The notes beneath the pieces are model-generated. The model was not told where the DNA came from, did not search any database, and saw only the letters and a program-made list of their open reading frames with translations. From assembly GCA_046262595.1 (NCBI GenBank), contig JBHEMM010000041.1:1-19389 (forward strand): a stretch of 19,389 bases of DNA, written 5' to 3'. Source of the DNA: Vulcanimicrobiaceae bacterium. Its GTDB lineage: Bacteria > Vulcanimicrobiota > Vulcanimicrobiia > Vulcanimicrobiales > Vulcanimicrobiaceae. Shown one piece after another: positions 88-5,789 of the stretch. The translations under genes and the position numbers were made by a program. The first letter of the stretch is position 1; the number at the start of each line of letters is the position of its first letter.

Positions 88-116
88 CCTCTAGCCCCAA
101 CGGTGAGGAGGTTTAG

Positions 117-200
117 TGCGCTCGACGGGATTTGAACCCGCACGGGTTAGGGCCCACTAGGATGACAGCCTAGCGCGTCTACCGATTCCGCCACGAGCGC
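117..200 (-). tRNA. Class II tRNA with a tRNA-Leu body and GUC (Asp) anticodon
   Basis: Reverse complement: GCGCTCG TG GCG-GAATCGGTAGA-CGC G CTAGG-CTGTCAT-CCTAG TGGGCCCTAACCCGT GCGGG-TTCAAAT-CCCGT CGAGCGC A. All stems pair. It is 84 nt with a 15-nt variable arm, anticodon GTC at 166-164 and discriminator A. It is followed by CTA, so CCA is not encoded. Confidence 0.93.
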
Positions 201-206
201 GAGATC

Positions 207-247
207 CAAAGGGGAAGGACGGTTTAGGGATCGGACCTTCCCCTTTG
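207..247. terminator. Perfect 12-bp inverted repeat (weak terminator or RNA processing stem)
   Basis: CAAAGGGGAAGG (207-218) pairs with CCTTCCCCTTTG (236-247) around a 17-nt loop. It lies between the ORF stop (265) and the tRNA 5' end (200). The U tract is short on both strands. Confidence 0.55.
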
Positions 248-264
248 CCTTGAATAAGATAGGG

Positions 265-1020
265 TTACATCGGCGGTTCCTCGGTCATCAGCGCGAATGT
301 GCCGTCCGGGCGGGTGTCAATCCGGCGCCCCTCCTGCCGCTGTTGATAGATGAGCGTAGCTAAGGATTTATCGGGATTATTGCTACCGGCAAGATAGCCT
401 TGCGCCTTCAACTGCTCTATCAACTGATCGCCCTTCGCCCCTGAAGCACCGAACCCCAAGAGGACTTCCCGCAAGGCATCGCCCGCACGTTTGTAGTTTG
501 AGCCGTAGCGGCCGGGCGGCTGCTTTTGCGCTGGCCGACCGTTTGAATGCGCCGGGGCCGCAGTCATCGCCGATCCCGCCCAGCGCCAATACCCACGACC
601 CTGCCGCCGAATCGGCTTCTTCTTTAACTTCAAGTTGTTGAGAGCGTTCCTAACCGCGTTGACCGGGCTTTTAGCGGCCGTCGTAAAACCACGGCCCCGC
701 AGCTCCGCCTCGATGTCCTCGGCGGTCATCCGCCTTCCGCCGGCCGCCTTCAAGACATCAAAGACGGCGTCCTGAAAGGTTTCTGGGGCACGCGGTGCGG
801 CGGAGTGATTGGAGCCGGAACCTGAAGTATGAACCGAGGCCATAGATTCAAGTTGCCGGACAAGGCGCTGGCGGAGCTCGATATTGGATGCAATAATGGC
901 CCGCTTCTCACGAAGGAATTGAAGTTGCCGCTCAGCATCGGCTATATCGCGCTCGACGAGCTTCAGGTCGTACTCCGTTTGCTGTAGTTCGGCGCGCGCG
1001 TTTTCCGGGGTTTCCACCAT
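265..1020 (-). CDS. Hypothetical protein: N-terminal coiled coil plus two winged-HTH (HARE-HTH-like) domains
   Basis: 251 aa. SD-like AGGTAGGTGA precedes the ATG and a consensus promoter lies upstream. Residues ~5-60 are a heptad-like coiled coil. Two similar modules follow: TFQDAVFDVLKAAGGRRMTAEDIEAELRGRGF...SPVNAVRNAL...IRRQGRGYWRW and AGDALREVLLGFGASGAKGDQLIEQLKAQGY...NPDKSLATLI...IDTRPDGTFAL. Confidence 0.75.
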   Translation of the reverse strand: MVETPENARAELQQTEYDLKLVERDIADAERQLQFLREKRAIIASNIELRQRLVRQLESMASVHTSGSGSNHSAAPRAPETFQDAVFDVLKAAGGRRMTAEDIEAELRGRGFTTAAKSPVNAVRNALNNLKLKKKPIRRQGRGYWRWAGSAMTAAPAHSNGRPAQKQPPGRYGSNYKRAGDALREVLLGFGASGAKGDQLIEQLKAQGYLAGSNNPDKSLATLIYQQRQEGRRIDTRPDGTFALMTEEPPM

Positions 1021-1079: not shown

Positions 1080-1108
1080 ATTCTACACCCTGTTAGGCGA
1101 ACAGTCAA
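1080..1108 (-). promoter_or_regulatory. sigma70-type promoter for the wHTH gene and the downstream tRNA
   Basis: Minus strand TTGACT (1108-1103), 17-nt spacer, TAGAAT (1085-1080); about 60 nt upstream of the ATG at 1020. Confidence 0.75.
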
Positions 1109-2715: not shown

Positions 2716-3354
2716 ATGGCTGACACAAAACACAGTTTGCAAACCTATATTAGCGACATGCTTGCGCTCGAAGAGCACGTGCGCGTGCCGTTCGAGGCGC
2801 AGCTGAAGGACGAGGACCTTTCATCGTATCCCACGGCGCAGACGCTGCTGCGCCGCCTATCCGACCTATCGAACACGCACATCGACGCGCTCAAGAACCT
2901 GCTCGAGCAGTACGGCGGGCACGAAGCGCATCCGGTAAAGGGAGCCGTCAGCGCGACGGCGGGCTTCTTCGCAAGCGCTATCGACAAAGTGCGGAAAACG
3001 GCGGTCGCGAAGGGTCTTCGCGACGACTACACGGCGCTTTCGCTCTGCACCGTTTCCTACAGTATGCTGCTTTCCACCGCAAACGCGTACGGCATGCCCG
3101 ACGTCAGCGCGCTGGCGCAGCAGCATATGCGCGACTATGCGCAGCTCATCATGGAAATCGGAACGGCCATACCGGAGATCGTCGTGTACGATCTTCAGCA
3201 AACGGGACTGGATGCGGACCCGTCGAGCGTCTCCGAAAGCGTTTCGCAAATCGAGTCGACGTGGCGCAGCAGCGCAAGTTCGGAACGCGGCCAAATCACG
3301 ACCGGTTCGATCGGCTCAGGAGCTACGCCGAGCCAAACGTCACGACCGGTTTAA
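2716..3354 (+). CDS. Ferritin-like four-helix bundle protein (DUF892/YciF-like stress protein)
   Basis: Helical protein with YISDMLALEEH, H-IDAL and LRDDYTAL...Y.ML, plus a Ser/Gly-rich tail. Its 3' end overlaps the convergent gene by 32 nt. Confidence 0.7.
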   Translation: MADTKHSLQTYISDMLALEEHVRVPFEAQLKDEDLSSYPTAQTLLRRLSDLSNTHIDALKNLLEQYGGHEAHPVKGAVSATAGFFASAIDKVRKTAVAKGLRDDYTALSLCTVSYSMLLSTANAYGMPDVSALAQQHMRDYAQLIMEIGTAIPEIVVYDLQQTGLDADPSSVSESVSQIESTWRSSASSERGQITTGSIGSGATPSQTSRPV

Positions 3355-4312
3355 GCACTCTAGAGCCGCGCAGAGCCGCATAGGCCTGCGCGGCTTCTTC
3401 CAACGGATACAAGGCTGCACCCAAACGCCGTGCGGTAACCACGCCGCGTTCGATGTGGCGCAGCGCGTCGCGCGTGTCATTCGGGCCGCACGAATAACTC
3501 GTTACCAGCCGCACGTCGCGAAAGTACAGATCGTTCGGGTCAAGCGTGAGCGCGACGCCCGGCTCGAGCGGCGTGAACATGACGACCGTTCCACCGCCGT
3601 TCACCGCAGCGGCGGCGTCACGCAGCGCCTCGGGCGAGCCCGGCCCGCAAATAACGACGTCAGCCTTTGCGCCGCCGTCTTCCACAATCGCAATGCCAAG
3701 CGTGCGCGCAAACGCCGCGCGCTGAGCCAGAAGGTCGGCGCCGGTAACACGCGCACCCAACGCCTTTCCGATCAGCGCGTGCATGACGCCCATCACCCCC
3801 AGCCCGATGACGTGCAGCGTATCGCCGCGCCTCACGCCGCTGCGGCGCAGCGATTTTACGACGCACGCAAGCGGCTCGACAAGCGAACCGTCTTCGAAGG
3901 AAACGTTCGGCGCAAGCAGCAGCGTATCGCCAACGTTTTCGCGCGGCACGCGGAAGAACTCCGCCAAGCCGCCGGGATCGATCCCGGTCTTGCGCCAGGT
4001 CGCGCACTGCACGAAGTCTTTGCGCTCGCATGAGCGGCACGTGAAGCACGGCGCGTGGTGATGCACGAAAACGCGGTCGCCGCAGGCAAAACCGCTCACG
4101 CCCGCGCCCACCGCATGCACGGTGCCCGCCGGTTCGTGGCCCAGCACGAGCGGTGCTTTGCGCCGTACGTACCACGCCATCACGTCTCCGCTGCATATTC
4201 CGCTCGCGCGCGTGCGCACGAGCAGTTCCCCTTCACCGATCTCCGGAACGGGACGCCGCTCGATCCGGATGTCATCCACGTCATACAGCACCGCTACGCG
4301 CATCTCGCTCAT
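3323..4312 (-). CDS. Zn-dependent medium-chain dehydrogenase (sorbitol/threonine dehydrogenase-like)
   Basis: MSEMRVAVLYD start at 4312 with ATGA overlap to the upstream stop. Motifs GICSGD, LGHEPAG, CFTCRSC-x7-C, VEPLAC and IGLGVMG. Confidence 0.92.
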   Translation of the reverse strand: MSEMRVAVLYDVDDIRIERRPVPEIGEGELLVRTRASGICSGDVMAWYVRRKAPLVLGHEPAGTVHAVGAGVSGFACGDRVFVHHHAPCFTCRSCERKDFVQCATWRKTGIDPGGLAEFFRVPRENVGDTLLLAPNVSFEDGSLVEPLACVVKSLRRSGVRRGDTLHVIGLGVMGVMHALIGKALGARVTGADLLAQRAAFARTLGIAIVEDGGAKADVVICGPGSPEALRDAAAAVNGGGTVVMFTPLEPGVALTLDPNDLYFRDVRLVTSYSCGPNDTRDALRHIERGVVTARRLGAALYPLEEAAQAYAALRGSRVLKPVVTFGSA

Positions 4313-5346
4313 GGTTCGATAGCGAACTTGATGCCTTCGCCGCGGTCCAGGCGCTCGAAGACGCGCGTAATGCCGGCGAGCGCGACGGTCTGCGTCACGA
4401 GGCCCAGCGGATCGATCGCGCGCGACGCGAGCAGATCGAATGCACGTTTTACCGATGAAGGACGGAAATGGAACGGGCTGACCAAGCGCACCTGATCGTA
4501 ATGCATGCGCGATGCATCGAAGCTCACGCGCGTGCCGGAGGGTAAGCCGCCGAAGAACGAAACGGTGCCGCCTCGCCGCACGAGCGCCGGCGCGTTTTCC
4601 CAAATCTGCGCTTGACCCGTACATTCGACGAGTGCATCGGCGCCGCGCCCCTGCGTNNNNNNNNNNCTGAGGGCCAGCGAGTAGAGGGGCCAGCCGTCGC
4701 CGCGGAGCTCGCCGAGCGACGCCGGCTCGCGAACGAGCAGCGCGAGCAGGTTGCTGCGCGTGGCGGTCGAGTCGTCGAGCTCGACGCCCGCGCGCGCGAG
4801 CAGCATCGCATGCAGAAAACCGAAGCCGCCGTCGCCCACGACGGCGACGAACTCGCCTTCGCGCGGTGAGAGCACGTCCAGCGAGTGTACGGCGCACGCA
4901 AGCGGCTCCAAAAATGCTGCGGCAACGTACGAAAGATGCGCCGGCTTTGCAAACGCGTTGACACGCACGATGTGAGCCGGCACCTCGATGAACTGCGCGT
5001 AAGCGCCTAAGATCTTCGCGCTCATCACCGACTCGCAAAGTTCTTCCTCGCCGCGCATGCACCAAAAGCACTGCAGGCAAGGCGCGGAGTGCACGCACGC
5101 GACGGGATCGCCCGCAGCGAACTGCCCGACGCCTTCGCCCACTGCGGCGACGTCGCCCGAAAACTCGTGTCCGAACGGAGTGGGCATCGGCATCTGCGGA
5201 TGGCCGCGCTGGTATGCTTTCAAATCCGTGCCGTCGGTGAGCGCAGCACGGACGCGCACGACGATGCCTCCGGCTTGCGGCTGCGGGCAGGCCACCTCGC
5301 GCAGCTCGATGCGCTTGGGTTCGACCAAAAACGCCGACTGCATCAT
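4309..5346 (-). CDS. Zn-dependent medium-chain dehydrogenase (spans an assembly gap)
   Basis: MMQSAFLVEPK start at 5346 with ATGA overlap. Motifs ALTDGTD, FGHEFSG, CLQCFWC-x7-C, LEPLAC, VGDGGFG and GADALVECTG. Ten Ns at 4657-4666; ~4667-4790 looks unreliable. Confidence 0.88.
   Translation of the reverse strand: MMQSAFLVEPKRIELREVACPQPQAGGIVVRVRAALTDGTDLKAYQRGHPQMPMPTPFGHEFSGDVAAVGEGVGQFAAGDPVACVHSAPCLQCFWCMRGEEELCESVMSAKILGAYAQFIEVPAHIVRVNAFAKPAHLSYVAAAFLEPLACAVHSLDVLSPREGEFVAVVGDGGFGFLHAMLLARAGVELDDSTATRSNLLALLVREPASLGELRGDGWPLYSLALXXXXTQGRGADALVECTGQAQIWENAPALVRRGGTVSFFGGLPSGTRVSFDASRMHYDQVRLVSPFHFRPSSVKRAFDLLASRAIDPLGLVTQTVALAGITRVFERLDRGEGIKFAIEP
4657..4666. other. Scaffold gap (10 N)
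   Basis: Run of ten n characters. Confidence 1.
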
Positions 5347-5789
5347 GCTGAAGCGGCGAGCAGCGCGGCGCGGACCGGCGGCGGCAGCGGGCGGCTTTTC
5401 TGCGTGCGCCGGTCCATGCAGGCAACGACCAAATGAAAAGCCGCGCCGATCTCGCCCGTACGTTCGTTGTGCACCAGCGTCTGCCACTTGACCGACGATC
5501 CGCCGACGTGGCGGATATGCGTTTTGAGCACGAGCCAATCGCCCATCAGCGCGGGCTTATGGTAATCCGCCTCGACGTGGACGCGCGGGAGCCAAATATC
5601 GTATGCCTCGAAAACCGTGCTATACGGAAAGCCTAGTTCGCCGAAGAAATCCATTTCGGCGCGTTCCACCGCGCGCTGGTACGCGGCGAAATACATGATT
5701 CCGGCGATGTCGATATCCGCCCACTGCACCATCACGCGAGTGGTGAAGACGCGCGCGCCCGGCGGTGTGGTGTCTTTAAATTTTGGCAT
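5343..5789 (-). CDS. Acyl-CoA thioesterase (4HBT/YbgC hotdog family)
   Basis: VQWADIDIAGIMYFAAY...ERA, EADYHKPALMGD and C-terminal SRPLP; 148 aa. Confidence 0.9.
   Translation of the reverse strand: MPKFKDTTPPGARVFTTRVMVQWADIDIAGIMYFAAYQRAVERAEMDFFGELGFPYSTVFEAYDIWLPRVHVEADYHKPALMGDWLVLKTHIRHVGGSSVKWQTLVHNERTGEIGAAFHLVVACMDRRTQKSRPLPPPVRAALLAASA

Follow-up and report, generated by a model that had tools for sequence, protein, structure and literature searches.

Can a transfer RNA built on the body of one amino acid carry the anticodon of another and still be a gene that selection keeps? The question is raised by positions 117 to 200 (minus strand) of a 19,389-nt stretch of DNA (the window), contig JBHEMM010000041.1 of a Vulcanimicrobiaceae soil bacterium (GCA_046262595.1). 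The window is contig C41 of a 2.42-Mb metagenome-assembled genome (MAG) of 122 contigs that is 89.7% complete, and its gene content is mostly core metabolism (riboflavin, lysine, and aspartate-family genes, PcrA, and glycosyltransferases). Its helicase shares 37 to 46% identity with the helicases of 10 named MAGs spread over several phyla. The 84-nt class-II tRNA gene at this place, hereafter the GUC tRNA, has a leucine-type body, the anticodon GUC, discriminator A73, and no encoded CCA; the assignment draws on ARAGORN, Rfam, a Leu covariance model, and the contig of a diverged relative. These comparisons are best explained by a functional gene that selection maintains within an accessory part of the genome.

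ARAGORN reports a single tRNA in the window (116 to 200, minus strand) and calls it tRNA-Asp with anticodon gtc. Rfam model RF00005 matches 117 to 200 on the same strand with 60.1 bits (gathering score, 29; E value, 5e-11) over the full model (positions 1 to 71), with a 12-nt insertion in the variable region. Both agree with a preliminary description of the locus, made from the letters alone, which had proposed a tRNA with a GUC anticodon at 117 to 200 and left its strand unstated. In the structural parse, the acceptor stem (GCGCUCG/CGAGCGC) is paired in 7/7 positions, U8 and G9 lie between the arms, the D arm (GCGG-AAUCGGUAGA-CGC) is of the Leu type, and the anticodon stem (CUAGG/CCUAG) is paired in 5/5 positions. 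The variable region has 15 nt with a GGG/CCC stem, and the T arm (GCGGG-UUCAAAU-CCCGU) has a 5/5 stem that includes one G-U pair. The stems are thus as free of decay as had been described. The anticodon loop (162 to 168, minus strand; anticodon, 164 to 166) reads CU-GUC-AU, with A37 and U38. Discriminator A is followed by CUA in place of CCA, as the preliminary description had pointed out; the missing CCA is unremarkable, because 18 of the 46 ARAGORN calls in the same genome lack it by a loose test and a gene of the CCA-adding-enzyme family is present in the assembled genome. Minimum free energy folding of the 84 nt gave no cloverleaf and was not significant (z = -1.39; 18 of 200 shuffles were as stable); since this failure is usual for tRNAs, the covariance-model score and not the fold energy is taken as evidence for a tRNA.

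To which amino acid does the body belong? A Leu covariance model (R1) was built from 15 aligned tRNA-Leu genes of relatives, two of which (L018 and L019) come from unpublished genomes, and the genome's class-II tRNAs and tRNA-Asp were scored with filters off. The GUC tRNA reached 83.7 bits, within the range of the genome's four own tRNA-Leu genes (CAG, 107.7; GAG, 96.3; UAG, 76.1; CAA, 61.1 bits); the highest of the others was tRNA-Tyr (53.0), followed by four tRNA-Ser genes (42.0, 40.7, 35.3, and 33.7), the canonical tRNA-Asp (36.4), and two tRNA-Sec genes (15.1 and 13.4). The body is therefore that of tRNA-Leu, which is what the preliminary description had expected a comparison of isotype models to give. 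The relatives point the same way; counts over them, here and below (60 relatives, 40 relatives, and 385 genomes of the class), rest partly on unpublished genomes. The best non-self matches in 60 relatives are 72 to 80% identical to the GUC tRNA; 15 of the 29 fetched relative loci were scanned, and all 15 are tRNA-Leu with anticodon CAG or GAG, the top match outside the source genome (80% identity) being an ordinary tRNA-Leu(CAG). The closest paralogue in the source genome is only 74% identical, and no close orthologue was found in the 60 relatives or in the 384 other genomes of the class.

The genome's own tRNA-Leu genes read CAG, UAG, GAG, and CAA. A tRNA-Leu(UAA) did not turn up in the 89.7%-complete assembly, yet 13 housekeeping open reading frames (ORFs) of the window contain 25 TTA codons; the gene is probably in the 10% that is unassembled. 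Apart from leucine, the 2.4-Mb MAG has two calls of tRNA-Sec(UCA) (C22:39385-39478 and C62:4644-4737), which could reflect a real duplicate, strain heterogeneity, or contamination. Two further ARAGORN calls, a 98-nt "tRNA-???" with a 4-base anticodon (C28:31507-31604) and a 94-nt "tRNA-Gly ccc" (C5:1575-1668), are probably false positives, because they are absent from the genome's 43 Rfam tRNA hits.

The individual nucleotides agree with the score. In Escherichia coli, the elements that set Leu identity are A73, A15-U48, G18G19, and A20a, and the anticodon is not among them; Asp identity depends on G73, G34, U35, C36, C38, and G1-C72/G2-C71, the anticodon bases being the strongest determinants in bacteria (PMC9976931). 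By these rules the preliminary description's argument holds, since A73 and U38 in place of G73 and C38 fit Leu and not Asp identity. The GUC tRNA has the Leu core elements A73, A14, A15:U48, and G18G19; its anticodon is GUC and not the NAG or YAA of a tRNA-Leu, and lies two changes from the nearest Leu anticodon. The CUN-reading tRNA-Leu genes of the genome have G37 and the GUC tRNA A37, a contrast that had likewise been noticed beforehand.

Could aspartyl-tRNA synthetase (AspRS) charge it nonetheless, making it an unusual spare tRNA-Asp, for example, one that escapes factors recognizing the normal tRNA-Asp body? The weight of the anticodon in bacterial Asp identity speaks for such charging, as do G10 and G1-C72, which are both present. 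The genome's true tRNA-Asp(GUC), a 77-nt gene on contig C6, shows what is different: it has G73, C38, G2-C71, and a class-I variable loop, and the GUC tRNA has A73, U38, C2-G71, and the 15-nt variable region in their place. In addition, a long variable arm faces the side from which class-II synthetases approach, which also argues against AspRS. Together with the family data below, these features make a spare tRNA-Asp decidedly unlikely.

Is the gene real, given where it lies? It sits 116 nt from a contig end in a MAG of 122 contigs, a setting in which an assembly or sequencing artefact has to be considered. The test is provided by a 408-nt soil-metagenome contig of a relative, which covers positions 19 to 345 of the window with 35 substitutions and 6 gaps. 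Not one of these differences falls between 116 and 203, the nearest being at 115 and 204; the flanks are about 17% diverged, and the 84-nt tRNA is identical, anticodon included. By our own arithmetic, the chance of 84 unchanged positions at that flank divergence is about 1e-7. Because an independent assembly of a diverged relative carries the identical tRNA in its own context, sequencing and assembly error are excluded, as the preliminary description had held for sequencing error. The contig end overlaps no other contig of the assembly, and a k-mer chimera is implausible, because the canonical tRNA-Asp shares only 6 nt around the anticodon. An artefact is thus extremely improbable, and the comparison of the two contigs indicates that the GUC tRNA is under purifying selection and has not been decaying freely. 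The same contig means that the order of zinc-ribbon gene end, tRNA, hairpin, and ORF end exists in a second organism or element. In a search of sequencing runs, the locus appeared in two soil-metagenome DNA rows with identical figures, which we took as one data set.

How isolated is this tRNA? A scan of 185,579 species, each represented by a single genome, for a Leu D arm followed by a stem and YUGUCA yielded 37 loci against about 0.4 expected by chance (our estimate); ARAGORN calls a class-II "tRNA-Asp gtc" in 27 of them. On inspection, 23 were intact, 2 were cut by contig ends, 10 were broken or truncated, and 2 were false positives, both of them duplicated 5' halves of tRNA-Leu(CAA). Judged by the titles of their records, the hosts are, among others, Planctomycetota/Phycisphaerae, Bryobacterales, Vicinamibacterales, Solirubrobacterales, Gemmatimonadales, Dehalococcoidia/Chloroflexota, Saccharibacteria, Alphaproteobacteria, and Verrucomicrobiae MAGs. 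Of the 385 genomes of the class to which the window belongs, only the source genome itself has the pattern. A broader pattern (Leu D arm, anticodon with a middle base other than A, long variable region, and T loop) gave 50 loci in viral contigs, 40 of which have at least four of five anticodon-stem pairs (anticodons GCC 7, UGG 6, GUU 6, UUA 5, UCC 4, UGA 3, GUC 1, and others). In metagenome contigs, it gave at least 120 loci, at least 100 of them well paired, with at least 28 different anticodons; among the matches listed, to which all counts of family members below also refer, these are CGC 17, UGG 14, UUA 10, GCC 7, GUC 6, GGA 5, GUG 5, and others. From 208 listed sources, 198 were parsed, giving 140 good cloverleaves and 135 distinct sequences.

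Since the genome, viral, and metagenome scans all returned many such tRNAs, GUC is a frequent anticodon within a large set, and the tRNA of the window is no isolated curiosity. Here the preliminary description, which named no other Leu/GUC case, is not supported as written: Leu-frame GUC tRNAs recur in many phyla. The nearest frames to the window tRNA carry UGG and AUC anticodons, and the idea that the GUC tRNAs form a monophyletic clade was rejected, as they cluster only weakly (11 of 28 have a GUC tRNA as nearest neighbor; permutation p of about 0.04). Two kinds of loci met in these scans are recorded for their own sake. In Clostridia and Christensenella MAGs (L034 and L038), repeated 5' halves of tRNA-Leu(CAA), about 100 to 180 nt apart, lie upstream of an intact gene and look like leftover attachment-site duplications. 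Two Phycisphaerales MAGs have dense tRNA arrays: one (L262, genome G074) packs 20 tRNAs into about 1.8 kb, including 74-nt genes (class-I length) that ARAGORN calls Leu, and the other (L291/L294, contig C6 of genome G073, about 952.6 to 956.1 kb) has a 3.4-kb stretch with about 35 Rfam tRNA hits, at a distance of about 30 kb from its Leu-frame GUC tRNA.

What do the relatives of the GUC tRNA say about its identity? We aligned 28 distinct intact Leu-frame GUC tRNAs (alignment A1). Their cloverleaf is paired in 98.5% of 672 cells, with double changes in 20 of 24 pairs; none of 500 shuffles reaches the observed paired fraction or covariation score, and slid controls are 39 to 47% paired. The stem figures are partly circular, because pairing of the acceptor, anticodon, and T stems was a condition for inclusion. 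The variable-arm helix played no part in the selection, and it is 98.2% paired with all four pairs covarying. The preliminary description had suggested looking for homologues that keep GUC with covarying stems, and these 28 do. At positions that the search patterns left free, A73 is found in 26 of the 28 (one has C and one G) and U48 in all; C38 occurs in 6 and G2-C71 in 11. U33 and A37 are present in 28/28, and the 5-bp/7-nt decoding arm is perfect.

Other anticodons in the same frame behave differently. Five of seven GUU members have G73, each together with U1-A72, and three of four GUG members have C73, nucleotides that we take to be the Asn and His identity discriminators. Frames that fit the synthetase of their anticodon have thus changed the discriminator, and the GUC class has not (G73 in 1 of 28); it has therefore kept a Leu-type end, which counts further against a spare tRNA-Asp, even though the GUU and GUG tRNAs with a Leu D arm resemble proper decoders of Asn and His codons in an unusual frame and so lend that idea some support. 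G3-U70 is absent from all 20 CGC and UGC members, and A73 is present in 15/15 UUA and 2/2 CUA members; a frame that bears these suppressor anticodons with A73 suggests a tRNA that works in translation with any anticodon. Overall, some tRNAs with a Leu D arm appear to be fitted to the synthetase that matches their anticodon, and the GUC, CGC, UGG, UUA, and CUA sets keep the Leu end. In five viral loci (L074, L081, L090, L110, and L111), a Leu-type D arm and an enlarged variable arm occur together with GUU, U1-A72, G73, and, in many cases, CCA; these phage tRNAs resemble tRNA-Asn in a class-II-like frame and do not resemble mistranslators. An IS1595-linked GUC tRNA with a Leu D arm in an Alphaproteobacteria MAG (L062) has a 33-nt variable region, G73, and an encoded CCA; it alone among the GUC members has an acceptor end that might suit Asp or Ser identity.

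The source genome and seven others (G062, G069, G071, and G073 to G076) have a canonical class-I tRNA-Asp besides the GUC tRNA; because the two coexist in all eight genomes where pattern search or ARAGORN found the former, the GUC tRNA is an extra and not a replacement. Pattern search and BLAST found no tRNA-Asp in G072, G066, G077, and G078, and the BLAST query also missed that of G073. Replacement of tRNA-Asp by the class-II GUC tRNA in Planctomycetota was considered and rejected: the 77-nt BLAST query drew a blank in five genomes, and this is uninformative because it failed on a canonical tRNA-Asp that ARAGORN finds in G073.

Where does the gene sit? It lies in a strain-specific (accessory) region, positions 1 to 1700, as judged by DNA search against three congeners and by GC content. 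The three same-genus genomes align only from 1697 to 1708 onward, with synteny from about 1700 (an aldo/keto reductase gene), and have no tRNA at the corresponding place; the GC fraction is 0.57 to 0.59 in the first 1.7 kb and about 0.64 further on. Directly upstream of the tRNA, on the same strand, is an orphan ORF of 251 aa (265 to 1020, minus strand; ORF and family searches) with a coiled-coil-like N terminus. It has sub-threshold HARE-HTH hints only, no family in Pfam, PHROGs, or PADLOC, no counterpart found in 40 relatives, and one homologue (50% identity) among 5.8 billion proteins. Between the two lies a hairpin found by repeat search (207 to 247, minus strand), with a perfect 12-bp stem, a 17-nt loop, and a weak U tract, whose pairing is kept in the relative's contig by a paired change (210A>G and 244T>C). 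It was not called as a terminator, no canonical terminator was called there, and it is a possible attenuator or processing element. Upstream of the ORF, a sigma-70-like promoter match (TTGACT-17-TAGAAT, 10/12; 1080 to 1108, minus strand), which is a consensus match only, could drive a transcript of ORF plus tRNA, with cotranscription through the hairpin. On the other side, the 3' end of a gene cut by the contig end (1 to 87, plus strand; last 28 codons and stop, by translation) converges on the tRNA; it has a CPKC zinc-ribbon-like motif and sub-threshold Pfam zinc-ribbon hits only.

Such surroundings invite another reading, namely, that an intact-looking gene is a silent passenger on recently acquired DNA, unexpressed or effectively neutral. 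The absence of the 1.7-kb region from three congeners, the single occurrence of the pattern among 385 genomes of the class, the lack of a promoter of its own in our scan, and the 10 broken loci among 37 in the family would all suit a passenger. Zero changes in 84 nt against flanks about 17% diverged do not, nor do the compensatory changes throughout the family or the preservation of the hairpin between ORF and tRNA by a paired change. We accordingly give a neutral passenger a small chance.

Is the family mobile? An IS1595-type transposase lies near the GUC tRNA in 5 of 36 loci (L044, L048, L053, L062, and L302), three of these transposases being confirmed by Pfam and the remaining two by their BLASTP matches to them. 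In L302, a viral contig of 143 kb, the order is transposase, small coiled-coil-like ORF, and tRNA. Other loci are flanked on one side by a housekeeping gene and on the opposite side by unknown or mobile genes, with an integrase (L046), DDE_3 (L035), HSDR_N (L042), and PD-(D/E)XK (L053) among the neighbors. Apart from the IS1595 transposase, no protein partner recurred in an all-against-all BLASTP of the ORFs of 36 loci or in a Pfam search of 135 neighboring ORFs of 27 loci, and nothing recurred in a tblastn search of the two neighboring ORFs against 37 loci. In the window, neither a transposase nor IS-like terminal repeats were found, and no IS1595 transposase was found in positions 1 to 1700 or in the assembled genome, the contig ending 116 nt past the tRNA.

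Two further features of the window are set down here. A hairpin at 1482 to 1512 (13 bp and a loop of 5 nt, AAAGAGCCAGGCG / CGCTTGGCTCTTT) is found where a 90-aa ORF ends, just before the conserved region; it may be a terminator for both directions at the border of the accessory segment. The 700-aa ORF at 3323 to 5425 (minus strand) has alcohol-dehydrogenase domains only in residues 397 to 689; its start is probably placed too far upstream, because its first 396 aa match no family and overlap ORFs of the plus strand.

How, then, might the GUC tRNA act? In our preferred reading, it is a canonical 7/5 class-II tRNA whose whole body has bacterial Leu identity and whose anticodon loop would read GAC/GAU. 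The cell's single leucyl-tRNA synthetase (LeuRS) would charge it with Leu, since bacterial LeuRS ignores the anticodon, and Leu would enter proteins at some of the Asp codons, the canonical tRNA-Asp competing for them. The assembly has one LeuRS (gene on contig C22; one LeuRS-specific domain hit over threshold, in a LeuRS-sized frame) and two class-IIb synthetases, AspRS (contig C57) and one more, as expected for Asp plus Lys or Asn. Leucylation is the best inference because the Leu identity elements listed above for E. coli leave the anticodon out (PMC9976931). Expression would probably be low or conditional, because the gene has no promoter of its own and follows an orphan ORF, with a hairpin in between. 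The comparisons show the gene, the Leu type of its body, its conservation, and the recurrent class to which it belongs; charging with Leu, use on the ribosome, and any benefit or toxicity are what we infer. We hold charging by LeuRS with Asp-to-Leu decoding at a low or conditional level to be an evenly balanced proposition.

Several points weigh against it. The GUC anticodon is the strongest Asp determinant in bacteria, so that some Asp charging or a dual identity is possible, and 6 of the 28 GUC members have the full Asp-type loop CU-GUC-AC. The LeuRS identity rules come from E. coli and Aquifex and not from the source lineage. The search of sequencing runs listed no RNA run containing the locus, and the promoter scan found no promoter-like site between the 251-aa ORF and the tRNA. 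The GUC class decays often, as 10 of the 37 genome pattern loci are broken or truncated. Finally, efficient Asp-to-Leu decoding should be harmful, because Asp makes up 5.1% of codons (223 of 4,395 in 13 housekeeping ORFs of the window), and the expected harm argues for silence, very low expression, or a nontranslational role.

The last of these possibilities would be a stable, processed, tRNA-shaped RNA that does not serve bulk decoding and acts as a decoy or sponge, a regulator, or a nonribosomal Leu donor; as a decoy, it could be a sponge for readers of U33-G34-U35 loops (anticodon nucleases and Tgt). Strict conservation combined with the expected toxicity of decoding would be accounted for in this way, and anticodons with G34-U35 (GUC, GUU, and GUG) make up 17 of the 112 distinct intact viral and metagenome members from searches not biased toward GUC. 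Some allo-tRNAs and irregular tRNAs are charged yet unused in translation (PMC5389517). Yet the decoding arm is perfect, with U33 and A37 in every GUC member, and no conserved protein partner except the transposase in 5 loci emerged from 36. Likewise, no defense gene (nuclease genes included), toxin-antitoxin gene, or dedicated synthetase gene was found beside the tRNA with Pfam, PHROGs, and PADLOC. We consider an RNA outside bulk decoding unlikely.

Natural tRNAs in which body and anticodon disagree are known from few systems, namely, allo-tRNAs, tRNAProX, and the nev-tRNAs of nematodes. The anticodons of the last are reportedly those of Gly and Ile. Like the GUC tRNA, nev-tRNAs have a class-II variable arm and anticodons that are neither Leu nor Ser, and the title of their description speaks of an alternative code for leucine; unlike it, they are eukaryotic and nematode specific (PMC3333845). 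With the canonical bacterial tRNA-Leu, the GUC tRNA shares the D arm, tertiary-pair positions, variable arm, T arm, A73, and a covariance score in the Leu range; it differs from it in the anticodon GUC and in having A37 where CUN readers have G37. The allo-tRNAs found in bacteria from soil and sediment (Mukai et al. 2017) are also class II, with a long variable arm and a mismatch of identity and anticodon, and the active ones insert the amino acid set by the body (PMC5389517). The Ser-type allo-tRNAs have 8/4 or 9/3 layouts and anticodons covering 35 codons, with UAU, GCG, and GUC predominating; they have toxin-antitoxin and transposon-related genes in their neighborhood, and in E. coli some are active and others inactive (PMC5389517 and PMC7609411). 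Because GUC predominates among them, class-II mismatched tRNAs reading GAC are already published in another frame. The GUC tRNA is distinguished from the 12-bp acceptor branch (8/4 or 9/3) and Ser or Ala identity of allo-tRNAs by its 7/5 layout, Leu-type D arm, and A73 (PMC5389517). The tRNAProX/ProRSx pairs of Streptomyces and Kitasatospora are likewise natural and bacterial, joining one identity with the anticodons of others (Ala, Asn, and Thr), and are maintained in genomes; they have Pro identity, class-I form, and a dedicated synthetase paralogue, unlike the present case with one LeuRS in an 89.7%-complete assembly (PMC11415595). A search of the full-text literature, supplements and subscription papers aside, brought up no bacterial tRNAs that join a 7/5 Leu frame to an Asp or other non-Leu sense anticodon, and no IS1595-borne tRNAs.

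What would such a tRNA mean? If charged with Leu, it would make a drastic swap, a charged residue for a large hydrophobic one, at about 5% of codons, and a conserved, multiphylum gene of this kind would imply that regulated mistranslation by bacteria or mobile elements is far wider than documented. A bolder view, which we advance only tentatively and hold to be on the doubtful side, is that Leu-framed tRNAs with non-Leu anticodons form a widespread, horizontally moving "code-bending" class, carried by soil and aquatic bacteria, phages, and transposons and exploiting the anticodon-blind LeuRS, with the GUC form performing controlled Asp-to-Leu decoding. On that view, the GUC form might be a conditional proteome poison (in addiction or abortive infection) or a private recoding device of its carrier. 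The family offers a testable set of natural candidate LeuRS substrates with at least 28 anticodons, of use in studies of sense-codon reassignment and in building orthogonal decoding systems. Leu-frame tRNAs in unrelated bacteria and phages may thus be a natural way of misreading the genetic code.

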